A stretch of 64,000 nt of DNA from Acutalibacteraceae bacterium (lineage in GTDB: Bacteria > Bacillota > Clostridia > Oscillospirales > Acutalibacteraceae). Positions 3,606 to 37,452 of this stretch are shown here, in pieces. The translations under genes were made by a program, and so were the position numbers. The stretch covers positions 5,010-69,009 of the forward strand of contig JAZSPR010000050.1 of assembly GCA_045537555.1 (NCBI GenBank). Direction: 5' to 3'. Each line of letters starts with the position of its first letter. The stretch's first letter is position 1. The notes under the pieces are model-generated. The model was not told where the DNA came from, ran no database searches, and was given only the letters and a program-made list of their open reading frames with translations.

Positions 3606-4919
3606 ATGAATATAAATTTAAAAAATGAATATCCTGAAATGCCCGAAAGTTTTCATTCTGTTGTGTTTGAAACGGTTCAGAGTGTTGAAGAAAAGGGTAT
3701 GTCTGTCAGAAAAAAATCACCCCTGAAAGTTGTTGCACTTGCGGCGGCAATTACGGCTCTGCTTACCTTAACAGGTTTTGCGGCAAACACTGTCTATGAA
3801 AAATTTATCAACAAGGAGAATTATAAGGTAACTCTTGACCTGAACGAAGAATCAACAGATAATTTGAAATCACCGGAATATGTAAAACTCAATTTCGGTT
3901 ATCTGCCCGAATATCTTGACACAGCCGATGCTCCGTATAAGCTTGGAATAAAGACACAGACAGGTGATATTGCTCCCTCGGGGCTTACATTCCGTCTGTT
4001 CAGAAATGAAACGGCAAAAGACCTTGAAATATTCTATGTCGGCAGTGCAACTGAGTGTATGTTCGGTGACAATCAGGGTGCTGTTATGAAAATTGACACG
4101 GGTATTGAATCCGACGGTGACAATTATGATAAGGAGTTTCTTATCAATTTCGCTGATATGGGTTATGTTCTTCACTGCTATGTTTCGGAAAGAATCAGCG
4201 AAGATGAAATGATGAAAATTGCAAACGGACTTTCTCTTACAGAAACAGATAAAGAACACGCATTTATCATTGATACTTATATTCCGACAACGGATAACGG
4301 TGGAATAATTGAACCCTCTTCTGATATTGTATACTCATATGCAGAAGACGCTGTTGTAAGAGAGCTTGGCGAAACATTCAATATAACAGCCCACAACGGT
4401 GATATTGACGGAAATGATTATACACTCTGTGTAAAAAATATTGAAATCCGTGATAATGTAAAAGGTCTTGATTACAGAAGTTTCAATCTTGCAAAAGATA
4501 TTTCTGACTATGTTGATGAAAACGGCAATTTTAAAACTTATGATCGCAAAATTTATAATTACGGCGACGGTGTAAACTCAATTTCATCAATAAAGAAAAC
4601 AGAAACTGTCGGCAGAAAAATAATTCTGATTGATATTGAAGTCACAAACAATGAAAAATCAGCAAATGAGTTTTACATTGATGCAGGTATCTGCAGTATC
4701 AGCGGAACACACGAAGCAAACAGATTTAACAACTTTGAAGCCTCTTATATAAGCGGTCAGTACGGTGGGACCGGCGGTTATTATCACATTCCCTTTGAAG
4801 CAGGTGAAAAGAAAACTGTAACTTACGGTTTTGTTATTGATGACGATGCCGATTTTACAGACCTTATGTTTATTGCCGGAAGTCTGTGGGATGTTACGGA
4901 CGGTGTTGTAATAGAATAA
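3606..4919 (+). CDS. Single-pass membrane protein, putative anti-sigma factor partner of the ECF sigma
   Basis: It starts 2 nt after the sigma gene stop. A short cytoplasmic N-terminus is followed by one TM (LKVVALAAAITALLTLTGFAA) and a ~370-aa extracytoplasmic domain. No zinc-finger anti-sigma motif is visible, so the function is inferred from position only. Confidence 0.4.
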   Translation: MNINLKNEYPEMPESFHSVVFETVQSVEEKGMSVRKKSPLKVVALAAAITALLTLTGFAANTVYEKFINKENYKVTLDLNEESTDNLKSPEYVKLNFGYLPEYLDTADAPYKLGIKTQTGDIAPSGLTFRLFRNETAKDLEIFYVGSATECMFGDNQGAVMKIDTGIESDGDNYDKEFLINFADMGYVLHCYVSERISEDEMMKIANGLSLTETDKEHAFIIDTYIPTTDNGGIIEPSSDIVYSYAEDAVVRELGETFNITAHNGDIDGNDYTLCVKNIEIRDNVKGLDYRSFNLAKDISDYVDENGNFKTYDRKIYNYGDGVNSISSIKKTETVGRKIILIDIEVTNNEKSANEFYIDAGICSISGTHEANRFNNFEASYISGQYGGTGGYYHIPFEAGEKKTVTYGFVIDDDADFTDLMFIAGSLWDVTDGVVIE

Positions 4920-6357: not shown

Positions 6358-6559
6358 TAAATCAGAATTTGTCGAGGTCCCCTCGACAAATTAATGAGTA
6401 ATTAGTAATGATTAATGAGTAATGGTGGAAAGGGCTGCGCCCTTTAAATCCTATTATAGAGCGAAGCGGAACATAAGTCGCTTGCGACTTCCGACATTAC
6501 TCATTACTCACTACTCATTGCTCATTTTTGTCGGGCAACAGCCCGACAAATTATTGTTT
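6358..6559 (+). repeat. Structured intergenic repeat, copy A (GAGTAAT-word arms)
   Basis: The element starts TAAATCAGAATTTGTCG with a hairpin. Its arms are built of (T/G)AGTAAT words on the left and ATTACTC words on the right. The core is GGAAAGGGC-TGC-GCCCTTT..CCTATTATAG. It ends TTTGTCGGGC-loop-GCCCGACAAATTATTGTTT. The stop of the 603-aa minus-strand gene lies in the last 9 nt. Confidence 0.8.
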
Positions 6560-8362
6560 GTCTTCTGAATTAAGTTCAGGTAAAGAGTATTTCTCTTTCA
6601 GCTCTTCGATTTTTTCAAGCTTTGCCGATAATCTGAGAACGATTCTTGCATCGGCGGCATTTACATTTGAATCATTGTTGATATCGGAAACCTTCTTCTG
6701 AGCTTCTGAAAAGTCGGTTTCAAGTTTTGCCGAAAATCTCAGGATAAGTCTTGCATCGGCGGCTGTGACACCGTCTGAGAGCGTTGCATCGCCCCATTGA
6801 GTAAGTTGCACGGGGTTATCGGGATTTGTCGGGTTTTCGGGGTCTGTGGGATTTTCAGGCTCTTTTGTGTTAATCCATTTTGCATAAAGAGTGATGTTTC
6901 CCGTTGTATATGCTCTGATGTATTCGATTTGCTGAGTGTATTCTTCGTCAAGATACCATCCGCCGAATTTGTAATCTGAATTGATAGTCTGAGCCTCTTC
7001 AAGAGACACCTGTTCCGTGGTTGTTCTGACAAATATTTTGTTTTTGTTCACAACCTGTGATTCCTTTACTTCACCTGAACCGAGAACATATGATACGGAG
7101 TATGTTTTTTCTGTTATATCGGCATAAATGATGATGTCGCCGTAAGAATCGGCAGGTATTGAATCAATTTTTATTTTTCTTGCTTCGTCAAGACACCAGC
7201 CGTTAAAAATGAAGCCTTCTGCCTCGATGGGAAGGAGAGTTGTGTTGTCACCGAAATTGTATTTTACGGGGTTGGGATTCTCAACTTTAAGATAAGAAGG
7301 TCTTATCATCGCATAGTCATATGAAATACTGTACACAGCCGTTTCCCATTTTGCATATAATGTCAGGGGCTCAAGCTGACCTGCTTTTACGGTTGTAATT
7401 TTTTTTGTGAGCTCCTTATTTGTGTACCAACCTGCAAAACGGTAGTTTTTGTCTGTTGAAACGGGATCGTTGAGCAGAAGAGTATCAGTACTTCTTGCGG
7501 ATTCGGGATTGTTTGCATAAACTGTTGATGCATCAATTCCGCTTGAATCTGCAAGGACATATGTTATATTGTAACTTTTTACAGCCCATTTCGCATAAAG
7601 AATTATGTCTCCGCTTGTGCCTTCTGTAATTGATGTTACCTGATTTGTAAATAATGAATCGGTAAACCAGCCTTCAAAGGTGAATGCGGGGTCATCGGTT
7701 GAAGCATCGGCGAGAACGAGTTCCTGAGAGTAAGTATACTCTGCGGGATTGGGGTTTTCCACTTTATAGGAACTTTTTTCGGCTTCACCCATATAATATA
7801 AAACGGAGAAGGAAGCTTCTTTCCATTTTGCATAAACCGTTACGTCTTCGCAAGTGTAGGAATTAATTGATGAGACGGGTTTTTTGTATTCTTTATCAAG
7901 AAACCAGCCTTCAAATGTGTAATTGCCCGATGTGTGGTTAGGGGCATGAAGATAAACCGTTTCGGTTGTTTTTCTTAAAGTATCATTGCTGTTTGTTATA
8001 TCGGATGTGTCTGTAAGCACACCTGGGGTTGTAAGGACGTAATTTACGGAATATTCCGATTCATACCATTTTGCGTATAAAGTAATATCACCCTCAGAAT
8101 CTTCAGGGATTGATGTTATTTTTTCATTCATTGATGAATCTGCAAACCAGCCCTGAAAATCAAAGCCCTCGCATTCGGGATTATTGAGAATTAATTCCTC
8201 ACCTTTTATGTAGCTGTCGGGGTTGTTATTGATAATATATTCAGAGCGAATATCTGCAACGGTAAAATCATACTTAATAGTGTATTCTTCGTTAGCATTT
8301 GCCGTAAGAGGAAATACGGCAATAAGACAAAGAATCAGAAATATATATATGCATTTTTTCAT
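6551..8362 (-). CDS. Secreted Listeria-Bacteroides repeat (Flg_new / InlB B-repeat type) protein with C-terminal dockerin
   Basis: Signal peptide MKKCIYIFLILCLIAVFPLTANA. About seven ~75-aa repeats follow, each with Y.(I/V).Y..., F.GW(F/Y), (I/V)TLYAKW. The C-terminal dockerin reads DATLSDGVTAADARLILRFSAKLE and DINNDSNVNAADARIVLRLSAKLE. Confidence 0.85.
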   Translation of the reverse strand: MKKCIYIFLILCLIAVFPLTANANEEYTIKYDFTVADIRSEYIINNNPDSYIKGEELILNNPECEGFDFQGWFADSSMNEKITSIPEDSEGDITLYAKWYESEYSVNYVLTTPGVLTDTSDITNSNDTLRKTTETVYLHAPNHTSGNYTFEGWFLDKEYKKPVSSINSYTCEDVTVYAKWKEASFSVLYYMGEAEKSSYKVENPNPAEYTYSQELVLADASTDDPAFTFEGWFTDSLFTNQVTSITEGTSGDIILYAKWAVKSYNITYVLADSSGIDASTVYANNPESARSTDTLLLNDPVSTDKNYRFAGWYTNKELTKKITTVKAGQLEPLTLYAKWETAVYSISYDYAMIRPSYLKVENPNPVKYNFGDNTTLLPIEAEGFIFNGWCLDEARKIKIDSIPADSYGDIIIYADITEKTYSVSYVLGSGEVKESQVVNKNKIFVRTTTEQVSLEEAQTINSDYKFGGWYLDEEYTQQIEYIRAYTTGNITLYAKWINTKEPENPTDPENPTNPDNPVQLTQWGDATLSDGVTAADARLILRFSAKLETDFSEAQKKVSDINNDSNVNAADARIVLRLSAKLEKIEELKEKYSLPELNSEDKQ

Positions 8363-12515: not shown

Positions 12516-12697
12516 AAACAATAATTTGTCGGGCTCTTTCAAATTCGCAATTTGAAATGCTCAATTCGCAATTTCGGAAGTCCTTCGGGCTTGAATTATA
12601 TAAATGGGTCAAAGGGCGAAGCCCTTTCCGCAATTGAGCATTGCGCATTGAGAATTGAGAATTTTTGTCGAACTTCAGTTCGACAAATTCTGATTTA
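12516..12697 (-). repeat. Structured intergenic repeat, copy B (ATTCGCAATT-word arms)
   Basis: It starts AAACAATAATTTGTCGGGC. Word arms are present, and the core is TCGGAAGTCC-TTC-GGGCTT..TATATAAATGGGTCAAAGGGC-GAA-GCCCTTTCC. It ends TTTGTCGAAC-TTCA-GTTCGACAAATTCTGATTTA. It is the reverse complement of the copy C layout. Confidence 0.8.
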
Positions 12698-12833
12698 TTA
12701 AACAAAAAGGACGTCTTTGGGAGACACTTCAAAAAGAAGATTCTCCCAATTTTTTTTACATTAAAAATGACACTTTCGGTTTGAAAGTGTCATAGTGGGT
12801 TACATGCTTAAAAAATCAACCTATCTCAAAAAT

Positions 12834-13067
12834 AAGTGATCTTGTGAGACAGGTCTCACAGTGATATTTTGCCTTACGGCAAAGTGATATTAAAACCTTT
12901 GGTTTTAGTTATATTATATTCGCCCTAAAACTCGCGATGCGAATATAACTTGGGCGAAGCCCAAATACAACTGCGTAGCAATATAACTCGCCAAAGGCGA
13001 ATATAACTGAGGCACACTTCCTTACGGAGTGTGCCTCTTCCGGGCGTCCTTCGTTTATTCTGATTTA
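12834..13067 (-). repeat. Divergent member of the repeat family, copy B2 (word + mini-hairpin arrays)
   Basis: AGTGATATT / AGTTATATT words alternate with AATATAACT words. Between them sit tiny hairpins: TTGCC-TTAC-GGCAA, AAACC-TTTG-GTTT, TGGGC-GAA-GCCCA, CGCC-AAA-GGCG and GAGGCACACT..AGTGTGCCTC. It ends in ..TTCTGATTTA, which contains the GH38 stop codon. Confidence 0.55.
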
Positions 13068-16019
13068 TTCTTTTACGAATCTTACATTCACAAGCTCGAA
13101 GCCGTGGAGGTTGAGTGCTGAATCTGTTTTTTCTGAAATCTTTTCTTCCATGATATTTACTGTTTCAGCCATTTTGTAACCCTTGATTGAAACTGTTGCA
13201 GTCTGTTCTGAATCTGAACAGTTGTAGAAACGGGCAATGAGTCCGTTGCCGTCTTCGGGAGCCTTGATTGTTTCAAGAATGATGTTGTCGTTGTCTGATT
13301 TGTAGCAGGTGCCTTCACCGTTTCCGCCGTTGCCTTCTGTGATAACAAGAGGATTGTTGACGAAATATGCTCTCTTGTATGTCTCCTTGCCGACTTTTCC
13401 AGCGTGAGGCATAACAGCCCAGTTGACTTCGTGATGTCCCTGGTCAACAATCTTGCCGGGGCCGCCTTCGGGTGAACGGATAAGGTCGAGGTCGATTACA
13501 CCGAACTTGCAACGGTAACCGTACTTGGAATCATTGATGAATGAAAGACCCATATTGTCTTCTGAAAGGTCAACGAACTTCTGAGCTGAAACTTCAAACT
13601 GAGCAAGCTCCCATGAATCGTTTTCAGTTACTTTTCTCTTGAGGTGACCGAACTGTATGTTGAAGGATGCTTCATCAGTTGCAACGTTTGTGGGAAGAGC
13701 CATACGGAGCATTGAAACTGTGTCATTCATTTCGATTTCCATTTTACCGTAGAGAGTGTTGTCGCCGTCAAGAACCCAGTAGGTCTGAGTGATTTCCGTA
13801 TTCTTGATTTTATATGTTGCCTTTGCACTTGCCTTTGCACCGTCTGTGTCTGTTTCAAAAGCGATACATACAGCATCTTTCTTTGTGTTGATGTAGTCTG
13901 CTCTGCAGTCTGTCATATCCCAGCAGTCGCCGTAATCATCGTACATTGAGAATACGAAGCCCTTTGAATCTGCAGGCATGAATTCACGACCGAGTGCCTT
14001 GTCGAAAATTGATGATACATAGCCGTCCTTGAACTGAACTTTTATCTTGTCATTTTCGATTGTGTGATAGTCTGAATATGCCTTGAACTCGGTTGTTTTG
14101 TCCTTGATTTCGGTTGCACCGAAAGCGGGGACTGAAACATCATACCATGTCTTGCCAAGCTTTATCTTTGTATCATAATCGAATGCGTTGAGGTTGACAG
14201 CTGAATTCTTCTTGTAGAGTGAATTGAGGAGGTCCTGAGTTGCATATGTGAGCTTGTTGTGCATTGCCTTGTAACGGGGCACGCATTCCTCGTAAACTCT
14301 GTTGATTGATGAACCGGGAAGGATATCGTGGAACTGATAAAGAAGAACTTCTTTCCACATTTCGTCGATTTCTTCCTTTGAAATGGGAAGAGCAAAACCT
14401 GCATCCTTTGCCATTTGAGCAACTATTTCATAGTTACGAAGGGCAAATTCACATTTTCTGTTATATTTCTTGTTGTCACTTCTTGTTGTGTATGTACCCT
14501 GATGTCTTTCAAGGTAAAGCTCGCCTTCATAAGTGGGATAGGGTGTTACACCGTCGTCAAAATCATTGAAGAAGTCCATAGCCTTAGCAAATTTAACCTT
14601 AGGCATGCTTCGGAGGCTTTCAAATCTTCTTCCTCTTTCGATATGCTCAAAACCGGGACCTGCACCGCCGTCACCGATACCGTAAAGCATCATTGCCTTG
14701 TTTGAAATGGGTCTTTCAATATATCTCTTTTCACCTTTTGTCATGTGACCTGCATAACAGGGTGAGTTGTATGTGTTTTCAGGCAGCATATGAGCGAGAA
14801 TTGTTGAGCCGTCAAGGCCTTTCCAGTAGAATGAATGATAGGGGAAGTCGTTATAAATGCTCCAGCTCATTTTCTGAGTGAGGAAATAGGGAACATCGGC
14901 AAGCTTCATAACCTGAGGTACACATGCTGAGTAACCGAAGCTGTCGGGAACCCAGAAAATCTTCATATCAAGACCGAATTCATCACGGTAGAACTTCTTG
15001 CCGTAGAAGAACTGACGGACAAGGCTTTCGGGCCCTATAAGGTTTGAATCGGGCTCAACCCATGTTGCACCCTGAACATCCCATTTGCCTTCTGCAACAA
15101 GGTCTTTTACCTTTGCATAAACCTTGGGATATCTGTCCTTGACCCATGAATAAAGCTGTGCCTGAGAAGCACCGAAAACGTAACCGGGATACATTTCGGT
15201 GTTCATAATCTGAGTTGAGAATGTTCTGCCGCCCTTACGGTAGCTTTCTCTGATGGGCCAGAGCCATGCAAGGTCAAGATGCGCATGACCGACTGCGTAA
15301 TATGTGAAATCTGATTCTGATTTCTGTGAAAGGATAGGTTCAAGCACCTTTCTCTTTTCTGCAGCCTCTGCATCTGTCAGATAGTCACATTTGATTGCAT
15401 TTAAAGCAGTTTTTATCTCTGCCTTGAATTCCTCGTCATCGCCGTAATCAAGAACACCTAAAAGAACATGCACATCATATGCAAGGTCACGCATGTTTGC
15501 ATTTTTCTTTGCGGCATAAAGCTCGTGGAAACGTGATTCTCTTCTGCTGTTGCCGAAAAGGTCGTTTGCCGCGCCGTCAATCCAGAAATCGAAATATTCA
15601 CCGTTAAGAAGAGCATCTGTAACGGGAATGATTCTCTTCATCGGTTCGCCGAGACTTCTGTCTGAATCTGATGAAACGCAGGTGATTGCCTGAATTTCAT
15701 TGCCGAAGCGGTCATATACAAGACCTTCACCGCCGCAGTCAACGATAACTGTGTCACAGCCTTCGGGTCTCTTGCCTGTGATGTGGAACCATGCGCAGTC
15801 AAATACATTTTCGCACCATTTGCCGCCGATTTTAACGGTGAATTTGTCACCCTTATAACGGTCTTCAAAGCTTAAGGGTTCAAGTGAATAATAACCCGTG
15901 CCGTCAAGCGGAGAAATAATACGGTATGCTAAGTCGAAAAGCAGGTCTGAGAAATTCTCAAAGCTCTGTCTTTCGGGACAATCAAATTTTTGTTTGAAAT
16001 TAAAAGTCATCTGTTTCAC
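13065..16019 (-). CDS. GH38 alpha-mannosidase (cytoplasmic, no signal peptide)
   Basis: 984 aa. It has YAVGHAHLDLAWLWP, WVPDSFGYS, ERHQGTYT and LLYQFHDILPGSS, all hallmark GH38 blocks. Confidence 0.9.
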   Translation of the reverse strand: MKQMTFNFKQKFDCPERQSFENFSDLLFDLAYRIISPLDGTGYYSLEPLSFEDRYKGDKFTVKIGGKWCENVFDCAWFHITGKRPEGCDTVIVDCGGEGLVYDRFGNEIQAITCVSSDSDRSLGEPMKRIIPVTDALLNGEYFDFWIDGAANDLFGNSRRESRFHELYAAKKNANMRDLAYDVHVLLGVLDYGDDEEFKAEIKTALNAIKCDYLTDAEAAEKRKVLEPILSQKSESDFTYYAVGHAHLDLAWLWPIRESYRKGGRTFSTQIMNTEMYPGYVFGASQAQLYSWVKDRYPKVYAKVKDLVAEGKWDVQGATWVEPDSNLIGPESLVRQFFYGKKFYRDEFGLDMKIFWVPDSFGYSACVPQVMKLADVPYFLTQKMSWSIYNDFPYHSFYWKGLDGSTILAHMLPENTYNSPCYAGHMTKGEKRYIERPISNKAMMLYGIGDGGAGPGFEHIERGRRFESLRSMPKVKFAKAMDFFNDFDDGVTPYPTYEGELYLERHQGTYTTRSDNKKYNRKCEFALRNYEIVAQMAKDAGFALPISKEEIDEMWKEVLLYQFHDILPGSSINRVYEECVPRYKAMHNKLTYATQDLLNSLYKKNSAVNLNAFDYDTKIKLGKTWYDVSVPAFGATEIKDKTTEFKAYSDYHTIENDKIKVQFKDGYVSSIFDKALGREFMPADSKGFVFSMYDDYGDCWDMTDCRADYINTKKDAVCIAFETDTDGAKASAKATYKIKNTEITQTYWVLDGDNTLYGKMEIEMNDTVSMLRMALPTNVATDEASFNIQFGHLKRKVTENDSWELAQFEVSAQKFVDLSEDNMGLSFINDSKYGYRCKFGVIDLDLIRSPEGGPGKIVDQGHHEVNWAVMPHAGKVGKETYKRAYFVNNPLVITEGNGGNGEGTCYKSDNDNIILETIKAPEDGNGLIARFYNCSDSEQTATVSIKGYKMAETVNIMEEKISEKTDSALNLHGFELVNVRFVKE

Positions 16020-17963: not shown

Positions 17964-18236
17964 TCTTTGGTCTCCTTGTTAGTTAATATCAATTTAATAA
18001 TATAGTAACATTTTTCTCCCGTCAAGGTGAATTCAGAATGTTTTATGTTATATTCATTGCAAATTCATAATTTGTTAATATAAAATTATAAAAATCCACA
18101 CAAGTTTGTTTTTTGTGATTGCGGAAATATTTTGCTTGCATTCGGGCACAGTCCGATAAATTCTGATTTGTGCAAATTTTACATTATAATTAATATATTT
18201 TTTACAACAAAATCAAAAGAAAATAATATTCTTATA

Positions 18237-18331: not shown

Positions 18332-21300
18332 ATGTCGAAAATCAAAAATTATTCTCGACACATCGTGGTGCTGTTAGTAGCTTTTGCAACAGTATTCACA
18401 TGCCTTTTTGCCTTCACTCCTGAAGCAGATGCAGGCGCAACTAATTACAAGTGGCGAGTTTCTTACCAGCTCGATCAGGGTAATAACAATACCGAATCTT
18501 GTTATGTAAGACTCTATTACAAAACAAACAACGGTACCGGCTCTGAAACTTATGTTCAGATTGAAGGTGACGATATCACTTTCGATAAGGACAAACACGG
18601 CTGGTATTACTGGACATCAGATTCATCAGTCGGTGCACCTTCCAGTGGTGGTTCTTTCAGAAGTTCTCATACACTTCCTGCCGGTGCATTCCCCACTAAA
18701 GTTGATGTTTATGTATATTGTGAAAGCGGTTCACCTGCTTATCAGGAAGTCAGAATCAAGTCCATTAAACTTGAAGTTATGAATCAGAGCGGTTCTGTTG
18801 TTGCTGCATCAGGCACGGCAGACCTTACAGTCCCCAGCAGTAAGGATGCACAGAACAGAACTGCTACTGTTACAATTCCGACAACATCATATCCTTATGT
18901 CACAAACTGGAGCATAAGCGGTCTTCCTTCAACATATGCTTATGTTAACAGAGACGGTTCAAACTACACTGCTACTGCTACTATCACTGCAGAAGACAAC
19001 TACGGTGTAAACTGGGTGAATGCTCCCACAACAACAGGTACAAATGTTACTGTAAATAACGGTTCAACTGCAACTCCTACTGTTGTTTTCGGAAATAAGG
19101 ATACCGACTACAGCGCATCTATCACATCTAAGTGGTCAACAGGGAATTCTTCCCAGTCAACGGTTTCCAAAACATATTCAATTTCAACTGTTTATGTTCC
19201 TCATAAGCTCACAATTGATGCAAACGGCGGTACATACAGTGCAACTAACCCCATTACGGGTAAATACAGTTATGAAACTGCAGAAGTTTCAAATCCCACA
19301 AGAACTGCATATACATTTGATTCCTGGACAATGACTTCAGGCGACGGTGTAATGAACGGAAGTTCATTTACTTTCGGTAAAAATGATTCTGCAATCAAGG
19401 CAAACTGGACTCCTGTACAGTATACAATTGCTCCTGTATATGAAGGTAATTCATATTCTGATGTTGCATATAATATTGAAACAACAAGCATTTCTCTTCC
19501 CACTCCTTCAAGAACAGGTTATACATTTGCAGGCTGGGTAGTTTCAGCTGCAGCCGGTAACTGGACTGTAGGTGAGAGTGTAACAACAAATCCCGCAGGT
19601 AAATACGGTAATATCACCGTTTCACCTTCATGGACTCCCAACAGCTATACACTTAACCTCAATGCAAATAAAGCAGGAGCTTCTGTTTCTCCCGCATCAA
19701 AAACTGTTAAGTACGAAACAGCAATCGGTGACCTTCCCGTTCCTACCGTAACAGCTTACGATTTCATCGGCTGGTTTGATGCATCACAGGGCGGCTCAAA
19801 GGTTACTGCTGATACTGTTTATACAACAGCAGGCAATTCAACAGTCTATGCACAGTGGTCTCCCACCGTATACAAATTCATTATTGATGAAAACGGCGGC
19901 GACACAGCAGCTGACGGTGCATACAATATTGAAGCAGGTGTTATTCCCGAAGGAACAACAAGAACAGGTTACACATTCAGCCATTGGGAAGTAAAAGAAA
20001 GTGTCGGCAACTGGGTTGCAGGTTCAACAGTCAATCCCGGTGCAAGTGCAGTAGGAAAATACGGTGATGTAACTCTCAAGGCTGTTTACACACCCAACAA
20101 CTATACACTTAATCTTGACCTTAATACTCCCGCAGGTGCTGTAACAGAACCTGAATGCGAAAAGAGTTCAATGTCTGTTACATTTGATAATGCAATCGGA
20201 ACTCTTCCCGTACCCACACTTGACGGTTATGATTTCGCAGGTTGGTATACATTATCATCAGGCGGAACTGCAGTAAATGCATCAACAGTTTATAAAACTG
20301 CAAGTGATTCAACAGTTTATGCAACATGGACACCTAAATCCTATACTATTATAATAGATGAAGATGCAGGTGTAGCAGTACCCGACGGTTCATACACAAT
20401 CGAATCAGGTGTTGCTCCCGAAGGTACAACAAGAACAGGTTACACATTCAGCCATTGGAAAGTTAAGGAATCTGTCGGCAACTGGCTTGCAGGTTCAACA
20501 CTCAATCCCGGCGACAGCATGACAGGTAAATACGGTAACGTAGAGCTTATTGCTGTATGGACTGCAAACAAATACACAGTTTCATTTGATCTCAACGATA
20601 CAGAAGGTGTATCAGATGCAACTGCAGACAAGACAACAATTCAGGCAACGTATGATGCATACCTTGATGCAAATGAAACCCTTCCCGTTGCAACAAGACC
20701 CGGTTATAACTTCCTCGGCTGGTTTACTCAGCCCGAAGGCGGCGAAGAAATAACGGAATCTCTTATTTATACCGTAGAGGGCGAATCAACATACTATGCT
20801 CATTGGGAACTTGTTACTTATACTGTTTCATTCAATGTAAATAACGGTAATCCCATGGAACCCATTACATATACGGTTGAAGATGAACTTGTTCTTCCCG
20901 AAGCTGTAAGAGACGGTTATGAATTCATAACATGGCGTTTCCTTCAGGCATCTACAGGTTCATGGGTAAGAAATACAACTTATAAGGGTGACCTCGGCAA
21001 CAAGAACTGGGGTAATGTCACTCTTACTGCTGATTACAAAATTAAAACTTACACAATCACATGGGATATTAACGGCGAAATTGAAACATCAGAACATGAA
21101 TACGGCACATATCCCTCACATGCAGATCCCGCTGTTACAACAGACCCCTATTATGAATATCTGTTCACAGGCTGGACTCCCGATATTGAACTTGTTACAG
21201 GTCCGACAACTTATACAGCCGAATTTGAAAAATTCCCCAAATCATATAATGTAAAATGGGTTGATGAAGACGGCAATACTATTCACAGCGGTCTTCTCGG

Positions 21301-23857
21301 TTACGGTGAAACAATTCCCACAAATGTTGTAGATGCACCTTCAAAGGAAGGTTATACAGTAGAGTGGGATTACAGCGGTCATGTAACAATGCCTGCAGAA
21401 AATATTGTTATCAAGCCTGTTTACACTCCCATTAAATACAAAATCACATGGAATGTTGAGGGAACTGAATTCCATTATGATATGGTTGATTATGATTCAC
21501 TTCCCGTATATTCAGGCTCAACTCCCGTAAAGGCTGCAGACAGTAAATATACTTATACATTTGCAGGCTGGACACCCGAAATCACAGTTGTAAAGGGTGA
21601 AGCAACATACGAAGCAACATTTGATAAGACACCTCAGAATTATACCGTTTACTGGTATGCTGAAGACGGTACTCTTGTCACAAGCTATGTTCTTGCTTAC
21701 GGTTCGGCAATCACAAATATTCCCAAAGTTCCCGAAAAGATCGGTTCTGTAGGTTCATGGGTTGATGTTCCCGAAACAATGCCCGACCACAATGTTGAGA
21801 TTTATCCCGCATACGTAAAGGGTGCTCTCGTTACATGGTATCTTGACGGTACGGCAGACGGTGCTTATTATCAGCAGGGCTTTGAAAACGGAACACAGAT
21901 TGAATATAACAGAAGCAATCCCGAAAAGCCTGCAGATGCTGAGTATACATACACATTTGAAGGCTGGTCAGAAACTCCCGGCGGTGAACTTATTTCGGGT
22001 TACCCCGTAGCAGGTTCAACAGATATCGTTTACTATGCTGTATATTCAAAGACTCCCAATGAATATACAATCACATGGAAAGCTGACGGTAATGTTGTTC
22101 TTGAAGAAACAATTGCTTACGGCTCAGGTATTACAAATGTTCCTGCAGTACCCGATAAGAAGGGTCACACAGGTAAATGGGGAACATTCCCCGCAACAAT
22201 GCCTTCAACAAATGTAACTGTTGAAGCAGTTTATACTCCCAATGATTACACAATCACATGGGTAGTCGGCGATGAGGTTTATCCCACATTATTCACTTAC
22301 GGCACAATGCCCGTATTCACAGGTGTCACTTATAAACCCTCAACAGCAACAACTGATTTCACTTTCACAGGTTGGGATAAAGACATTACTCTTGTTGAAG
22401 GTGACACAACTTATACAGCTCTGTATTCAGAATCTGCAAGAAAGTATACTGTTACATGGCAGTATGAAAACGGTGCAGTAATTGAAACTGACACAGTTGC
22501 AAACGGTGAAGCAATTACTTATATTCCTGTTATTGCAGAAAAAGAAGGTCACGAAGCAAAGTATGAAGTACCCGCTGTAATGCCTACAGAAAACATTACA
22601 ATCACGGTTACATATGAAGCAAAGAGCTACACAATTACATGGAACACACCTGCAGGTCTTATTGAAGAAACATGGAAATACGGCGAAACACCCGTATACG
22701 ATACTGAAAAGTACGGCGTTCCCGAAAAGGCAGCTACTCCCGAAAAGCAGTACACATTCCTTACATGGAGCCCCTCAGTTTCAACAGTTAAGGGTGACAC
22801 AACATACACAGCTATCTTCTCGGAAACAACAAGAAAGTATACGGTTGTATGGTACGTTGACGGTGAATTCTATGAAACAAGAGATATTGCTTACGGTTCT
22901 GTAATTCCCACTCTTCCTGTTCCCGCTAAAGACGGTTATATCGGAAACTGGGATAATGCTTACAGAACAATGCCTGCAAAGGATCTTACAATCAATTCGG
23001 AATACACAGCAAGAAAGTATACTGTTTACTGGAAGGTTGAAGGTCTTACAGTTTACTCTGCATCAGTAAGCTACGGTGATGTGATTCCCGAACAGAAGGT
23101 TCCTGAAAAGCTCGGTTACACAGGTGCATGGGTAAATGTTCCCGAAAAGATGCCTGCTCAGAATATTACAATCACAGCAGAGTATAAGGCAAACGAATAT
23201 AACGTAACATGGCGTGTCAACGGTGTTGATAATCACGATATCGCACAGTACGGCACAGATTATGTGATTACATTCACAGGCGAAACTATTCCCGAGGATG
23301 TAAGAATCACAGTCGGCGGAACAACTCTTGCAGTTGAAAATTATACTTATAACCTTGAAACAGGTGTTCTCACAATCAAGGGTACAGCTATTTTAGGTGA
23401 CATTTTCGTTACAGCAAGAGCTCTCGGCGGTAAGCTTGATGTTGTTATTAACTCAACAAATGCGTCTCTGACAAATCAGAACACAACAATCAATGAAAGA
23501 CAGGCATACCACACTCAGATTATTCCCGAAAAGGGTTACCTTCTTCCTGATTTCGTTGAAATCTATGTTGACGGCAGACTTATAACTGAAGGTTATGTTT
23601 ATAATCCTTCAACCGGCAAGCTCACAATCAATGCCGAAGTTGTTTTAGGTGCTATTGAAATTACATTCGATTGTCCTCCCGATCCTGATTACGATCCTTC
23701 AGCTCCCGAAGAAGATGAATCAGTAAAAAATTGCGGCTGTAATTGCCACAGCAAGAACGCCTTTATTAAGTTCTTCTTTGATTTTGCAACATTCCTTCGT
23801 AAACTCTTCGGAATGGAACAGTATCGCTACTGTGATTGCGGTGCAGCACACTGGTAA
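18332..23857 (+). CDS. Giant secreted surface protein: unknown N-terminal domain, about 17 or more Listeria-Bacteroides (Flg_new) repeats, Cys/His-flanked amphipathic C-terminal tail
   Basis: AAGGGAGG RBS. Signal peptide ..VAFATVFTCLFAFTPEADA. From about aa 290 to 1560 it is made of reiterated units with TGYTF.GW, YG..TL.A.(W/Y)TP..YT(I/V). The C-terminus reads CGCNCHSKNAFIKFFFDFATFLRKLFGMEQYRYCDCGAAHW. Confidence 0.85.
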   Translation: MSKIKNYSRHIVVLLVAFATVFTCLFAFTPEADAGATNYKWRVSYQLDQGNNNTESCYVRLYYKTNNGTGSETYVQIEGDDITFDKDKHGWYYWTSDSSVGAPSSGGSFRSSHTLPAGAFPTKVDVYVYCESGSPAYQEVRIKSIKLEVMNQSGSVVAASGTADLTVPSSKDAQNRTATVTIPTTSYPYVTNWSISGLPSTYAYVNRDGSNYTATATITAEDNYGVNWVNAPTTTGTNVTVNNGSTATPTVVFGNKDTDYSASITSKWSTGNSSQSTVSKTYSISTVYVPHKLTIDANGGTYSATNPITGKYSYETAEVSNPTRTAYTFDSWTMTSGDGVMNGSSFTFGKNDSAIKANWTPVQYTIAPVYEGNSYSDVAYNIETTSISLPTPSRTGYTFAGWVVSAAAGNWTVGESVTTNPAGKYGNITVSPSWTPNSYTLNLNANKAGASVSPASKTVKYETAIGDLPVPTVTAYDFIGWFDASQGGSKVTADTVYTTAGNSTVYAQWSPTVYKFIIDENGGDTAADGAYNIEAGVIPEGTTRTGYTFSHWEVKESVGNWVAGSTVNPGASAVGKYGDVTLKAVYTPNNYTLNLDLNTPAGAVTEPECEKSSMSVTFDNAIGTLPVPTLDGYDFAGWYTLSSGGTAVNASTVYKTASDSTVYATWTPKSYTIIIDEDAGVAVPDGSYTIESGVAPEGTTRTGYTFSHWKVKESVGNWLAGSTLNPGDSMTGKYGNVELIAVWTANKYTVSFDLNDTEGVSDATADKTTIQATYDAYLDANETLPVATRPGYNFLGWFTQPEGGEEITESLIYTVEGESTYYAHWELVTYTVSFNVNNGNPMEPITYTVEDELVLPEAVRDGYEFITWRFLQASTGSWVRNTTYKGDLGNKNWGNVTLTADYKIKTYTITWDINGEIETSEHEYGTYPSHADPAVTTDPYYEYLFTGWTPDIELVTGPTTYTAEFEKFPKSYNVKWVDEDGNTIHSGLLGYGETIPTNVVDAPSKEGYTVEWDYSGHVTMPAENIVIKPVYTPIKYKITWNVEGTEFHYDMVDYDSLPVYSGSTPVKAADSKYTYTFAGWTPEITVVKGEATYEATFDKTPQNYTVYWYAEDGTLVTSYVLAYGSAITNIPKVPEKIGSVGSWVDVPETMPDHNVEIYPAYVKGALVTWYLDGTADGAYYQQGFENGTQIEYNRSNPEKPADAEYTYTFEGWSETPGGELISGYPVAGSTDIVYYAVYSKTPNEYTITWKADGNVVLEETIAYGSGITNVPAVPDKKGHTGKWGTFPATMPSTNVTVEAVYTPNDYTITWVVGDEVYPTLFTYGTMPVFTGVTYKPSTATTDFTFTGWDKDITLVEGDTTYTALYSESARKYTVTWQYENGAVIETDTVANGEAITYIPVIAEKEGHEAKYEVPAVMPTENITITVTYEAKSYTITWNTPAGLIEETWKYGETPVYDTEKYGVPEKAATPEKQYTFLTWSPSVSTVKGDTTYTAIFSETTRKYTVVWYVDGEFYETRDIAYGSVIPTLPVPAKDGYIGNWDNAYRTMPAKDLTINSEYTARKYTVYWKVEGLTVYSASVSYGDVIPEQKVPEKLGYTGAWVNVPEKMPAQNITITAEYKANEYNVTWRVNGVDNHDIAQYGTDYVITFTGETIPEDVRITVGGTTLAVENYTYNLETGVLTIKGTAILGDIFVTARALGGKLDVVINSTNASLTNQNTTINERQAYHTQIIPEKGYLLPDFVEIYVDGRLITEGYVYNPSTGKLTINAEVVLGAIEITFDCPPDPDYDPSAPEEDESVKNCGCNCHSKNAFIKFFFDFATFLRKLFGMEQYRYCDCGAAHW

Positions 23858-27962: not shown

Positions 27963-29060
27963 ATGACAAAAAAATTAATTTCAATCACACTTTCAGTTCT
28001 TCTTGTATTTTCGCTTATTGTACTTCCTGTAAGTGCCGAAGAAGTATTAGATGATGCTGTTGAACTCTCTTTAGGTGAAAAAATCACAATTAATTTTACT
28101 GATGAAATCTATGAAAAATACATTAAATTTGTTGCAGACAAAACAATGACTGTTGCTGTATCTTCTGAAACAGCTGATGAAAGCGATCCTTATTGTATGG
28201 TTTTTGATGCTGACGGAACAGATATTGCTTCTGCTGATGACAGTAATGCAGGATATGATTTCATTTGCAGGTTTGAAGTAACTGAAGGTGAAACATATTA
28301 TATTCTTGTTACTGTATATGATTTTGGTCCTGCAACCACTGTTGTTTCACTTGACTGTGGTCATTCTTATACAGACGGTATCTGCGATGATTGCGGAGAA
28401 GTATGCACACATGATGTTTTTAATGATTTCGGTGAATGTGAATGTGGTCAGTATTTTGAAGGCGATGAACTTGTAATCGGTGAAAATTCTTTTGCTTTTG
28501 AACTTAACCAAGCGAAGTATTACAGATTTGTTCCCGAAGAAACAGGAATATATATCCTTCGTTCCGAAAGTGCAGAAACTGATCCTTACTCATTTTTGTA
28601 TGACAAAAATAATAAAATTCTTTATAGCGCTGATGATTCTGAAGCAGACTATAACTTTGAATTGCTTTGTTACCTTGAAGAAGGTGAACACTATTTCTTT
28701 GAAATAGGCGATTACTTTGAAAATGCAGAATGGACAGGTACATTTGAAGAGTTTGTTCATGAGGGCGAAGACGGTGAGCACGAAATCTATCTTGAAGATG
28801 AATATATCGGCACATGTCAGGATGTAAGCTACAGCGCAGGTATTTATTGTGAAGACTGCGGTGTGTATATATACGGTCATGAAGAACTCGGTAACGGCTA
28901 CCATGAAGATTATGATGTTGATGGAAAATGTGATTACTGTGGTTATGTGCTGTATGAAGAGCCCTCAGGAATTGAAGTACTCGGCGATTTTGTTATAAGA
29001 GCAATTGTATTTTTCAGAGATCTTTTCCTTACTATTTTTACAATTTTAGGAATCTGGTAA
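27963..29060 (+). CDS. Secreted protein with two PPC-like (pre-peptidase C-terminal type) modules, several C(D/E)xCG motifs and a hydrophobic/amphipathic C-terminal tail
   Basis: AAAGGAGG RBS. Signal peptide MTKKLISITLSVLLVFSLIVLPVSAEE. Two related ~100-aa modules are present (..DPYCMVFDADGTDIASADDSNAGYDF.. and ..DPYSFLYDKNNKILYSADDSEADYNF..). The tail reads GDFVIRAIVFFRDLFLTIFTILGIW. Confidence 0.55.
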   Translation: MTKKLISITLSVLLVFSLIVLPVSAEEVLDDAVELSLGEKITINFTDEIYEKYIKFVADKTMTVAVSSETADESDPYCMVFDADGTDIASADDSNAGYDFICRFEVTEGETYYILVTVYDFGPATTVVSLDCGHSYTDGICDDCGEVCTHDVFNDFGECECGQYFEGDELVIGENSFAFELNQAKYYRFVPEETGIYILRSESAETDPYSFLYDKNNKILYSADDSEADYNFELLCYLEEGEHYFFEIGDYFENAEWTGTFEEFVHEGEDGEHEIYLEDEYIGTCQDVSYSAGIYCEDCGVYIYGHEELGNGYHEDYDVDGKCDYCGYVLYEEPSGIEVLGDFVIRAIVFFRDLFLTIFTILGIW

Positions 29061-30165: not shown

Positions 30166-30357
30166 TAAATCAGAATTTGTCGGGCTGTGCCCGACAAAAA
30201 TTCGCAATTGGAAATTCGCAATTCGCAATTTCGGAAGGGGCTTTGCCCCTTACCCTATTATAATGGTTCAAAAGGCGGAGCCTTTTCCTTAATTGCGCAT
30301 TGATAATTGCTAATTGCTAATTTAATTTGTCGGGATCAGCCCGATAAATTATTGTTT
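30166..30357 (+). repeat. Structured intergenic repeat, copy C (best-preserved copy)
   Basis: The element starts TAAATCAGAATTTGTCGGGC-TGT-GCCCGACAAA. The left arm has three ATTCGCAATT words. The core is TCGGAAGGGGC-TTT-GCCCCTTACCCTATTATAATGGTTCAAAAGGC-GGA-GCCTTTTCC. The right arm has AATTGCGCATT, AATTGCTAATT and GCTAATT words. It ends TTTGTCGGGATCAGCCCGATAAATTATTGTTT. The dpaB stop lies inside the last 9 nt. Confidence 0.85.
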
Positions 30358-36170: not shown

Positions 36171-36632
36171 ATGAAAGCAGTAATTCAGAGAGTAAAGTCA
36201 TCATCCGTAAAGGTTGACGGTGAAATTGTCGGTCAGGTCGGTCACGGTTATCTTGTCCTCCTCGGTGTTATGGAGGGTGATACAAAGGCTCACGCAGAGC
36301 TTATGGCAAAGAAAACTGCCGCACTTCGTATCTTCTGTGACGAGAATGATAAGATGAATAAATCCGTTCTTGATATTGACGGTGAGATTCTTGTTGTTTC
36401 TCAGTTCACTCTGTGTGCCGATGTAAAGAAAGGCAACAGACCTTCATTTGACAATTCTGCTCACCCCACGGTCGCAAACGAACTTTATGAATATTATATG
36501 CAGTGTCTTAAAGACAACGGTGTCAGAAAAGTCGAACATGGCATCTTTGCCGCAGAAATGGAAGTTTCGATTGTAAATGACGGACCCGTGACAATTCTTT
36601 ATGATACGGATATATGGAACGTTAAACAATAA
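36171..36632 (+). CDS. dtd: D-aminoacyl-tRNA deacylase
   Basis: 153 aa. It has MKAVIQRVKSSSVKVDG, LVLLGV, VVSQFTL and NDGPVT. AAAGGAG RBS. Confidence 0.95.
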   Translation: MKAVIQRVKSSSVKVDGEIVGQVGHGYLVLLGVMEGDTKAHAELMAKKTAALRIFCDENDKMNKSVLDIDGEILVVSQFTLCADVKKGNRPSFDNSAHPTVANELYEYYMQCLKDNGVRKVEHGIFAAEMEVSIVNDGPVTILYDTDIWNVKQ

Positions 36633-36812
36633 TTTGTCGCTCAGCGACAAATTATTGTTTCAATTCTCAATTCGAAATGCTCAATGCGCAATTTTGGAAA
36701 AGGCTCCGCCTTTTGAATCATTATAATGGGGTAAGGGGCAATGCCCCTTCATCAATTGCGAATTGCGAATTTAGCATTGCGAATTTATAAGACCCCGACA
36801 AATTCTGATTTA
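36624..36812 (-). repeat. Structured intergenic repeat, copy D (intercistronic, between dtd and the MBL hydrolase gene)
   Basis: The element opens with the perfect palindrome CAATAATTTGTCG-CTCAG-CGACAAATTATTG, which starts at the last sense codon of dtd. Its core is almost identical to the reverse complement of copy C. It ends ..CCCCGACAAATTCTGATTTA, 10 nt before the MBL start codon. Confidence 0.85.
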
Positions 36813-36822
36813 AGGTGTAATT

Positions 36823-37452
36823 ATGATTATCCGAACCATCCCTCTCGGGCCTGTGAGAGCAAACACTTACATTGTGAGTGATGAAAAACACGACGGTACT
36901 TTCATCGTCGATGCAGGTGCTTACAATCCACGTTTTGAGAGGCTTATAAATGATAAAAAAATTGAATATATACTTCTCACCCACGGTCATTTTGACCACA
37001 TTATGGGTGTGAGTGAACTCAAAAAGCATTTTCCCGAGGCAAAGGTATGCATTCACGAAGCTGATGCCCCCATGCTCTCAGACGATATGCTTTCTCTTGC
37101 ATTTGCTTTCGGTGCAAGTGTTGATAAAGACCTTAAAGCAGATATCATTCTTCATGACGGTGATGAACTGCCTTTCGGTGATAAGAAAATAAAAGTTATT
37201 CACACTCCCGGTCACACAAAGGGCGGTGCGACTTTTGTTGTTGATGACTGCATGTTCACGGGTGACACACTATTTTACAGAAGTGTGGGCAGAACAGATT
37301 TCCCCGGCGGAGATTCACGCATTCTCAATAACTCAATCTGCCGTCTTTTTGATACGGACGGCGATTACAATGTTTATCCCGGTCACGATATAAATACAAC
37401 TCTTTCTGATGAAAGAAACAATAATCCTTACGTAAATTGGAGTAAAAGATGA
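36823..37452 (+). CDS. MBL-fold metallo-hydrolase (glyoxalase II-like)
   Basis: 209 aa. It has THGHFDHIMG, HTPGHTKG and GDTLF. Confidence 0.85.
   Translation: MIIRTIPLGPVRANTYIVSDEKHDGTFIVDAGAYNPRFERLINDKKIEYILLTHGHFDHIMGVSELKKHFPEAKVCIHEADAPMLSDDMLSLAFAFGASVDKDLKADIILHDGDELPFGDKKIKVIHTPGHTKGGATFVVDDCMFTGDTLFYRSVGRTDFPGGDSRILNNSICRLFDTDGDYNVYPGHDINTTLSDERNNNPYVNWSKR

Follow-up and report, generated by a model that had tools for sequence, protein, structure and literature searches.

A family of tagged palindromic repeats at gene ends of uncultured ruminant-gut Clostridia

A 64,000-nucleotide (nt) stretch of an Acutalibacteraceae genome (GenBank assembly GCA_045537555.1, contig JAZSPR010000050.1, positions 5,010 to 69,009; hereafter the window) carries several copies of a structured repeat, one of which, copy C (30166–30357), sits at the end of the sporulation gene dpaB. 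What kind of element is this, why is it found at gene ends, and how does it spread? The initial annotation of the window offered two answers, an element resembling a miniature inverted-repeat transposable element (MITE) or a repetitive extragenic palindrome (REP), and a structured RNA module. Here we show that the repeats form a palindromic repeat family, non-coding and REP/MITE-like, in uncultured ruminant-gut Clostridia, and that its members lodge at stop codons, with their orientation set by the gene upstream and with no spacer on the stop side. The first answer is in keeping with what we find: copies are non-coding, measure ~180–250 bp, end in imperfect terminal inverted repeats and terminal hairpins, and recur with 83–91% identity at unrelated loci.

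Copies in the window and their place at gene ends

The end motifs are far more frequent in the window than chance allows. With up to 3 mismatches, AAATCAGAATTTGTCG matches 13 times against an expectation of 2.1±1.6 (0 of 100 shuffles reach 13), and CGACAAATTATTGTTT matches 15 times against 2.3 expected, a count that no shuffle reaches. A repeat search of the window also joins the copies to one another: 30198–30325 in copy C pairs with 36659–36786 in copy D over 128 nt at 86% complementarity, and repeat families D7 and D14 likewise connect copies. The initial observation is upheld, and all six intervals first proposed hold sequence as described, B2 only as a partial relative. The number of copies changes accordingly. 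Five are full (A, B, C, D, and F), B2 shares no more than an 11-nt end remnant with them, and a seventh trace, a solo end at 18142–18169, is added. We refer to the end reading AAACAATAA as the R-type end and to that reading TTCTGATTTA or TAAATCAG as the L-type end; the strand of a copy is the direction from its AAACAATAA end to its TTCTGATTTA end, that is, the direction of the abutting gene.

In copies A, C, D, and F, the open reading frame (ORF) that enters the AAACAATAA end stops at the TAA of that end. Across the window and related loci, an ORF of 150 amino acids (aa) or more stops at the AAACAATAA end in 12 of 24 cases and at the TAAATCAG end in 0 of 28 (p = 1.3e-5), some of the 12 sites being orthologous, with about nine or ten independent. 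Seven of the 12 use the internal TAA and five the TAA at the boundary (tAA, then ACAATAA). On the other side, an ORF starts within 35 nt in 10 of 26 cases for L-type ends as against 1 of 25 for R-type ends; in those 10 cases, the Shine-Dalgarno sequence and start of the next gene come within 9–35 nt of the TAAATCAG end, and most of the remaining TAAATCAG ends are followed by an apparent native intrinsic terminator. With a stop on one side and a terminator or ribosome-binding site on the other, the element fills the gap between a stop codon and a pre-existing terminator or ribosome-binding site. Stop codons occur in two of the three frames of the AAACAATAA end but in a single frame of the other. 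Reading-frame selection could explain a bias of similar size, but neither the 12:0 split nor the zero spacing.

These data sharpen the initial description of a 3'-untranslated or intercistronic location, which was correct, and agree with it that copies occur in both chromosomal orientations. The statement that all copies are intergenic is inaccurate, since the AAACAATAA end holds a gene's stop codon in A, C, D, and F and the B2 remnant holds that of a GH38 gene. A similar habit has been described for GTAG REPs, whose termini often give the stop codon of flanking ORFs and most of which lie within 20 bp of ORF 3' ends (PMC3733652). The copies are laid out as follows; Gut-1 is a candidate RNA motif discussed below.

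6358–6559, minus strand: copy A, with L-type end 6358–6374, its hairpin 6368–6390, and R-type end 6544–6559; arms of AATGAGT heptads; the R-type end holds the stop codon (6551–6553) of the dockerin/Flg_new protein gene 6551–8362 (minus strand).
12516–12697, plus strand: copy B, with R-type end 12516–12531 lacking a local hairpin partner, and L-type hairpin and end 12670–12697; arms of AATTGAG/AATTCGC-type heptads; 40 nt upstream of the start (12475) of a response-regulator gene and abutting no stop codon.
12834–13067, strand not assigned: B2, partial relative, an inverted pair of Gut-1-like hairpin arrays (12859–12924, plus; 12938–13009, minus) with an 11-nt L-type end remnant ATTCTGATTTA (13057–13067), whose TAA (13065–13067) is the stop of the GH38 gene 13065–16019 (minus strand).
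18142–18169, strand not assigned: solo terminal hairpin and L-type end, TCGGGCACAGTCCGATAAATTCTGATTT, a truncated remnant upstream of the gene for an 1841-aa surface protein.
30166–30357, minus strand: copy C, with L-type end 30166–30182, hairpin 30176–30198, left heptad arm 30199–30231, core hairpin 1 at 30235–30251, loop with ATTATAATGG at 30252–30269, core hairpin 2 at 30270–30286, right arm 30289–30322, R-side hairpin 30323–30351, and R-type end 30342–30357, which includes the dpaB stop codon 30349–30351 (...ATT AAA CAA TAA).
36624–36812, plus strand: copy D, between dtd and MBL in the relA-dtd-MBL-rSAM (radical SAM) operon, with R-type end 36624–36639 including the dtd stop 36630–36632 (GTT AAA CAA TAA), a perfect R/R' mini-hairpin over 36624–36660, and L-type end 36796–36812 without a local hairpin, followed directly by AAGGTG and then ATG at 36823.
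59716–59962, plus strand: copy F, with degenerate R-type end GAACAATAA including the GH2 stop 59722–59724 (GAA CAA TAA), R-side hairpin 59723–59749, Gut-1-like small-hairpin array 59753–59829 with (A/G)TGATGT spacers, core hairpin 1 at about 59847–59866, GTAG...CTAC palindrome 59895–59924, and L-type end 59946–59962, after which comes a native terminator, 59970–59998.

The segment from B to B2 (12698–12833) contains another two hairpins, unrelated and each with a T-run behind it (ggagacacttcaaaaagaagattctccc and gacactttcggtttgaaagtgtc), so that stem-loops take up nearly all of the 590 bp that separate the GH38 and response-regulator genes.

Anatomy, folding, and the link to Gut-1

Each copy is one long imperfect palindrome, in which terminal hairpins tagged on their outward side enclose arms with a 7-nt period and a double-hairpin core. 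Read from the TAAATCAG end, the order is a 10-nt tag, a terminal hairpin, an arm, two core hairpins around ATTATAATGG, a complementary arm, the second terminal hairpin, and the tag TTATTGTTTA. Within a terminal hairpin, the tag (TAAATCAGAA or TAAACAATAA) precedes the stem foot, AATTTGTCG...CGACAAATT. The invariant module is this outward 9–10-nt tag, TAAA(T/C)(C/A)A(G/T)AA, placed directly 5' of a stem with the foot AATTTGTCG/CGACAAATT; above the constant foot, the hairpin tops covary (AGG/CCT, GGC/GCC, GC/GC). Thirteen strict instances were found in the window and related loci, with terminal hairpins of 23–40 nt. The tags TAAATCAGAA and TAAACAATAA are mutual inverted repeats, and the 17-nt ends that include the stem foot, TAAATCAGAATTTGTCG and TAAACAATAATTTGTCG, match at 14 of 17 positions, as expected from the imperfect inverted repeats first noted at the two ends.

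The interior is less uniform. The double-hairpin core, initially described as conserved, is so in copies A to D and not in F. What had been called a variable arm does differ between copies, but the arms turn out to be mutually complementary heptad arrays, with autocorrelations of 0.70–0.81 at lag 7 and 0.70–0.84 at lag 14; the unit is AATnnnn-like, and its tetrad is specific to the copy and mirrored in the opposite arm. The palindromes tagged with GTAG are likewise interior modules, seen in copy F (59895–59924) and at L038, L074, L105, and L200 (L-numbers designate loci from other genomes). The TATAAT of the core was considered as a promoter and rejected, as it has no -35 hexamer at a usable spacing and a promoter scan gives no call. 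As a separate observation, the copy C arm at 30199–30231 (AATTCGC heptads) gives blastn matches of 85–94% to multi-copy heptamer-repeat DNA on plasmids of Nostoc and other cyanobacteria, with as many as 14 places in one record. The likeness is probably a convergent similarity between simple repeats, but cyanobacteria are known for the oddity of tandemly repeated heptamers.

On one strand, copy C forms one long hairpin with an energy of -91.2 kcal/mol (z = -11.3), its other strand folds at -74.6 kcal/mol (z = -7.9), and the stem-loop energies of the five window copies range from -48 to -92 kcal/mol. An alignment of ten copies that share this architecture gives a consensus fold of 44 pairs, of which 22 show compensatory double changes; paired cells amount to 90.8%, compared with 79.5% in column shuffles (0 of 500 reach the observed value) and 35–47% when the partners are slid. 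The terminal hairpins score as terminator-like and face outward. Across 20 copies, no consistent asymmetry in folding energy between strands was found, the two strands folding about equally. Since neither strand wins consistently, we read the palindromy as a property of the DNA rather than as the result of selection on one RNA strand, and the same lack of a folding preference for the transcribed strand speaks against a structured RNA with a dedicated function, the second of the two answers proposed at the outset.

Some interiors nevertheless resemble a described RNA motif. Gut-1 (RF01706), described from human-gut metagenomes alone, is a candidate non-coding RNA and was rated a likely one by its discoverers (Weinberg et al. 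2010, PMC2864571). At the gathering score, no Rfam family was found in the window, and at the E-value level copy C gave only spurious microRNA and snoRNA matches, which we rejected. Against the full Gut-1 model, with its gathering score of 50 bits, the array of copy F (59753–59829) scores 28.8 bits and those of B2 (12859–12924 and 12938–13009) score 29.4 and 31.1 bits (E = 2e-4 to 8e-4), all below threshold. The initial statement that the repeat belongs to no named family therefore stands at the gathering score, with the reservation that the arms of F and B2 are sub-threshold Gut-1 matches. A bona fide match of 59.7 bits does occur in an element-bearing genome, at L074 5854–5928, in a copy without family termini. 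It is one of two small-hairpin arrays that mirror each other (L074 5790–5930), with (G/A)TGATAT spacers on one side and ATATCAT on the other; the pair follows closely on a tRNA gene and the terminator of that gene. Gut-1 and the arrays described here share three small tetraloop hairpins with GUGAAAU-like heptad spacers, and the GUGAAAU spacers of Gut-1 resemble the arm heptads; Gut-1, however, was described as standing alone, whereas here the arrays form mirror-image pairs inside or beside palindromic repeats. The mirror-image pair in L074 suggests that Gut-1 is not a small RNA on its own but a module of palindromic repeats.

The family in other genomes and at the dtd and dpaB ends

We scanned one genome per species with the end motif and obtained at least 110 stretches, mostly chance 16-mers, with most matches outside the Clostridia due to chance. 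Among the matches listed, real two-ended copies come from about ten metagenome-assembled genomes (MAGs) of ruminant-gut Clostridia, namely Acutalibacteraceae and their relatives and 'Clostridia bacterium' from buffalo and roe deer gut. Copy A is 91% identical over 212 nt to L041 3327–3537, an unrelated locus; L024 holds copies 89% identical to C and 83% identical to D; and pieces in L048 and L074 match F at 83–89%. In each comparison of the window with other genomes, the elements alone align (83–91%) and the flanking DNA does not, which argues that the sequence has been copied between loci and lineages.

Elsewhere, different interiors stand between the constant ends. They include other heptads (TGTACAA, AATGCAC, GTGAACA) and inverted GTAG-tagged palindromes (GTAGGGGCGCCCATCGGGCGTCCG, GTAGGGACCGATGCCCACATCGGTCC), and some copies, in L048 and L050, have no interior at all and are single hairpins of ~40 nt with both tags. 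Elements with two AAACAATAA-type ends are also seen, and in L119, from an Oscillospiraceae relative, the tag AAACAATAATTT precedes a different stem; the same tag on a different stem follows the tag-plus-variable-hairpin logic of REPs. No members were found, at the limited depth searched, in IMG/VR, JGI metagenomes, PLSDB, or INPHARED: the end-motif scan of IMG/VR returned 69 stretches, all chance 16-mers; two scans of JGI metagenomes gave zero matches and then eight ordinary terminators; and blastn searches of PLSDB and INPHARED recovered only the heptamer-repeat DNA of Nostoc plasmids, with no phage match. A separate module of ~130 nt, catttgtcaaagacaaatcggaaatctttgatttccgcataacgaacaaattgat...gttgcaatagaacg...cgttattgctccattacattacgcaatc, is conserved at L038 500–700 and also in L026, L092, and L073 1330–1450. 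It is enclosed by inverted GTAGGGACCGATG...CATCGGTCC palindromes, recurs in several genomes, and, as tested for L038, has no Rfam match at E ≤ 0.1.

Orthologous sites allow occupied and empty gene ends to be compared. Dtd homologues with at least 95% identity all end in NVKQ-stop; relatives at 86–91% end in NVK-stop, NVKV-stop, or NVKA-stop. L111 and L114, which are closest to the window at the dtd locus (80% nt identity), have empty sites with the sequence ...AAATAA..., and the empty site of L112 reads ...AAGGTCTGA.... The junctions of copy D fit either an insertion without duplication at AAA^TAA, as in the nearest relatives, or a TA duplication with an ancestor ending in NVKV-stop. At L198 1650–1670 (Dtd 92% identical), the gene ends in AAA CAA TAA, which is the 9-nt tag AAACAATAA with no element behind it, and the next gene starts 3 nt after the dtd stop without a Shine-Dalgarno sequence; this site is either the footprint of a deletion or a native KQ-stop older than the insertion. 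L199 has a native AAG CAG TAA.

At dpaB, the native end is QP(I/V)(I/L)(L/K/T)-stop, and many lineages end in IKQ-stop. The site is empty in L116, which has a plain terminator, and is taken by a family member in each of L117, L118, L119, L200, and L201, with differing interiors and slightly different junctions; one relative has a CAA-to-TAA change at the junction. Family members stand at dpaB ends in lineages down to 72% protein identity, and nearly all relatives are occupied. The presence of an element at the dpaB end is old, and the family persists at one gene end across deep divergence. The clearest case, L200, has the same synteny (dpaB, element, GH43), and its flanks and termini are ~95% identical to the window as far as AAACAATAATTTRTCG and CCCGACAAATTCTGATTTA. 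Between those points, the window has 192 bp and L200 about 330 bp, and the two cannot be aligned. Such agreement at the ends and flanks around an unalignable middle implies that the interior was exchanged or rebuilt between fixed ends. Taken across loci, sequence comparison shows a family that is dispersed in several species at non-homologous positions and whose interior is exchangeable while ends and flanks stay.

Spread of the family and its genomic setting

A unit made of a tag and a hairpin, inverted doublets, a mosaic makeup, the density of copies, the donation of stop codons, and long persistence lead us to consider it moderately probable that the copies are non-autonomous mosaic palindromic repeats following the logic of REP doublets, that is, of bacterial interspersed mosaic elements (BIMEs) or REPINs (REP doublets forming hairpins), mobilized in trans by a putative HUH/Y1-type enzyme. 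The smallest form would be a single tagged hairpin of ~40 nt that can stand alone; the commoner form would consist of two inverted tagged hairpins, or one long outer stem, around a replaceable interior, which here comprises heptad-repeat arms and a double-hairpin core and elsewhere Gut-1-like arrays or GTAG-tagged palindromes. Spread and reshuffling would occur in trans, through an enzyme encoded elsewhere that acts on tagged hairpins, the likeliest candidate being a single-strand-DNA HUH/Y1 nuclease-ligase of the type of IS200 or of the tyrosine transposases associated with REPs (RAYTs). Interiors may be swapped by recombination or template switching between the conserved ends, and the mirrored heptad arms may reflect maintenance of the palindrome at the DNA level, not selection on one RNA strand. 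Judging from its position, the element would be co-transcribed with the upstream gene, the tag would supply TAA (...AAA CAA TAA, or tAA and then ACAATAA), and the remainder would form a very stable stem-loop, placed after the stop codon and ahead of the native terminator or the next cistron's Shine-Dalgarno sequence, where it would serve as a 3'-end protector or partial terminator. Position alone makes a role at the RNA level plausible (3' stem-loop, partial terminator, coupling device), and we treat it as a consequence of that position and not as the reason for the element's existence.

The likeness to REPs, BIMEs, and REPINs, which are known with RAYTs (TnpA-REP) from Enterobacteria, Pseudomonas, and others, extends to short units, each a hairpin whose stem foot is preceded on its 5' side by a conserved tag, to singles or inverted doublets with a spacer and to mosaics, to high extragenic density, to long vertical persistence, and to the lack of coding capacity, and it includes the placement a few bases from upstream ORF 3' ends with termini that donate stop codons (PMC3733652). 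Our copies contain short repeated palindromes, inverted doublets that fold as one stem-loop, and mosaic interiors; the foot of the hairpin, however, lacks GT[AG]G/CGTC and bears terminal tags reading ...CAGAA or ...CAATAA instead. The family further differs in that its tag, TAAA(T/C)(C/A)A(G/T)AA, gives TAA where GT[AG]G or CGTC of REPs gives TAG, in that its interior is much larger (100–300 nt, with heptad arrays, a double-hairpin core, or Gut-1-like arrays), and in that the host is an uncultured ruminant-gut Clostridia lineage; no RAYT was linked to the ends at the loci inspected. Group 1 RAYTs have been reported in Clostridia (PMC5581495).

Several points weigh against the REP-like reading. 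No Y1/RAYT or other transposase linked to the ends was seen in the ~230 kb of element-bearing DNA inspected, and the tag is neither the GT[AG]G nor the CGTC of described REP superfamilies. The ends, a 17-nt inverted repeat with T...A flanks in 14 of 20 copies, fit a TA-duplicating DDE transposase equally well. Orientation tracks the upstream gene and not the replication direction suggested by the sign of GC skew (n = 7), which is not what insertion into the lagging-strand template, as in IS200/IS605, predicts. Finally, the empty-site comparisons give no single consistent junction model: duplication of TA or TAA, insertion between T and A without duplication, insertion at AAA^TAA without duplication, and shifted boundaries were all considered, and none restores the native stop at all sites.

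The quality of the inverted repeats and their T...A flanks also keep a classical MITE with terminal inverted repeats a serious rival, though we judge it unlikely. On this account, the copies derive from a deleted DDE insertion sequence (IS630/Tc1-mariner-like) that inserted at TA with duplication, the transposase lies elsewhere, and the pattern at gene ends results from purifying selection. The 14/17 match between TAAATCAGAATTTGTCG and TAAACAATAATTTGTCG agrees with it, as do the size, the absence of coding capacity, and the presence of copies in either orientation on the chromosome, and the flanks can be read as TA + AATCAG...TTGTT + TA. Yet variation in the supposed TA is confined to its outermost base (about 9 of 40 ends); its inner base is almost invariant, unlike a neutral duplicated flank. 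For copy D, the TA-duplication model predicts an empty GTT AAG GTG TAA (NVKV-stop), a C-terminus seen in relatives such as L112, but the nearest dtd relatives, L111 and L114, read AAATAA, and insertion without duplication fits them better. Selection would by itself favor the observed orientation, given the frames that each end closes; a 2:1 frame advantage cannot yield 12:0, however, and leaves unexplained the zero spacer on the stop side as opposed to 9–35 nt on the other. The single-hairpin mini forms and the shared tag on a different stem in L119 are atypical of recognition through terminal inverted repeats, and no autonomous copy was found, in that no end pair encloses an ORF among the 110 matches listed, a search of limited depth. 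TA-targeting bacterial MITEs (Neisseria Correia elements, pneumococcal RUP, enterobacterial ERIC) are also non-coding sequences of 100–250 bp with terminal inverted repeats that form long stem-loops if co-transcribed and often lie near genes, altering transcript ends. They differ in that orientation in our family is tied to the upstream gene, target duplication is putative, a single-hairpin mini form exists, and the interior is swapped between fixed ends. For Correia elements, too, the mobilizing enzyme is not known. Palindrome-associated transposable elements (PATEs) derived from IS200/IS605 offer a further comparison. They too have subterminal hairpins at both ends, no clear target duplication, and one conserved flank that could be a target or cleavage motif; in our family, by contrast, the ends are mutually inverted, no orientation bias with respect to the replication strand is evident (n = 7), and no tnpA or tnpB copy with family ends was found at the loci inspected. 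The base before AAACAATAA is T in about 75% of copies.

Less probable again is a functional RNA module related to Gut-1, a 3'-untranslated or intercistronic stabilizer, terminator, or translational-coupling device that is kept by selection and spread by ordinary recombination. The constant orientation relative to the upstream gene, a stop codon within the 5' half of the first hairpin and 9–35 nt between the other end and the next start codon, the outward terminator-like hairpins, the retention at dpaB and dtd ends over long divergence, the many compensatory pairs, and the match of the F and B2 arms to a motif rated a likely non-coding RNA all speak for it, and according to the background section of PMC6006769, REPs beside stop codons have reportedly been implicated in translation regulation. 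Against this stand folding energies that do not favor the transcribed strand, and unrelated, interchangeable interiors at one site, which imply that no specific RNA sequence or shape other than a long hairpin is conserved. Neither copy B nor the solo end follows a gene, relatives tolerate its loss (a plain terminator in L116, a site empty or secondarily deleted in L198), and some copying mechanism is needed to explain 83–91% identity between copies in different species at loci that are unrelated. Dispersed protein-binding DNA sites, such as palindromes bound by nucleoid proteins, gyrase, or a regulator, seem to us very improbable. BIMEs do bind integration host factor, gyrase, and Pol I, and the hairpin foot is a conserved palindrome that reads TGTCGAA/TTCGACA, like a Spo0A box, in B, L050, L104, and L117, and the organism carries the sporulation genes dpaA and dpaB; most stems, however, read TGTCGAG, TGTCGGG, or TGTCGCT, which is not a 0A box, and the copies lie at gene 3' ends rather than promoters.

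A bolder possibility, which we hold to be quite doubtful, is that the tagged ends are recombination sites of a dedicated single-strand recombinase that exchanges non-coding structured modules as cassettes. The analogy is with integron attC sites, which also have short conserved inverted ends around a hypervariable palindromic middle of variable length and lie right after or overlapping the upstream stop codon in fixed orientation; recognition as a folded single strand could, by analogy, be a further likeness. The family differs in lacking RYYYAAC/GTTRRRY boxes, an integrase, and attI, and the genes it flanks are syntenic core genes (dpaB, dtd) and not cassettes. An actual attC was rejected for the same reasons, the ends reading AAACAATAA and TTCTGATTTA with no GTTRRRY, and dif/Xer and CRISPR were ruled out on sequence grounds. 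If the recombinase reading were true, fixed stop-codon 'sockets' would take heptad arms with a core, Gut-1-like arrays, or GTAG palindromes, and swapping them would retune core genes at their 3' end or intercistronic junction, a non-coding counterpart of attC logic that would also give the orphan Gut-1 motif a context. Were the REP-like reading confirmed instead, REP/BIME-type tagged hairpins would extend to uncultured ruminant-gut Clostridia, with a new tag that writes TAA stops into core genes; the dpaB site would offer a clean natural case, at an orthologous position, of repeat ends that stay fixed while the interior is exchanged; and Gut-1 would be tied to palindromic repeat elements and not to a free-standing small RNA. 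In practice, such repeats would alter annotated protein C-termini (...KQ-stop), break MAG assemblies, and be liable to pass for structured RNAs.

The search for a mobilizing enzyme covered the window and its counterparts. As initially stated, no transposase is present in the window, none being found in Pfam, NCBIfam, and PDB scans of 42 ORFs, a set from which the 1841-aa surface-protein ORF was left out. In 24 element-bearing loci with 125 complete ORFs, all-versus-all BLAST gave only housekeeping and dockerin similarities, and the HUH-Y1 motif was absent among those ORFs of at most 260 aa. A cognate transposase with the same termini, as the initial annotation had envisaged, was seen neither in the window nor in the 24 loci nor among the matches listed.

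The window itself is ordinary chromosome of a dockerin-bearing, spore-forming fiber degrader. Its genes include GH2, GH38, GH43, GH125, DpaA/DpaB, RelA-Dtd, and RecJ, and it contains no tRNA genes; RelA and two of three tandem radical-SAM paralogues are named from homology or synteny only. These three genes (49627–55429) encode ~645 aa each, lie ~1.93 kb apart, and are 63–88% identical over repeated DNA segments; the first is radical SAM by Pfam, and a glycosyltransferase and a fourth radical-SAM gene follow. The cluster looks like one for peptide or glycan modification. Large secreted proteins with internal DNA repeats of ~390–630 nt are encoded at 18332–23857 and 6551–8362, and the 603-aa protein has Listeria-Bacteroides (Flg_new) repeats and a dockerin by Pfam. 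Dockerins also occur in 2012–2983, and on the strength of these proteins the host looks like a cellulosome-type, Ruminococcus-like organism. Neither the ORF at 3606–4919 (437 aa) nor that at 27963–29060 (365 aa) matches an entry of Pfam, NCBIfam, or PDB. The former follows an extracytoplasmic-function sigma factor and has one predicted membrane helix, and so looks like an anti-sigma factor; the latter encodes a Cys- and acid-rich secreted protein.

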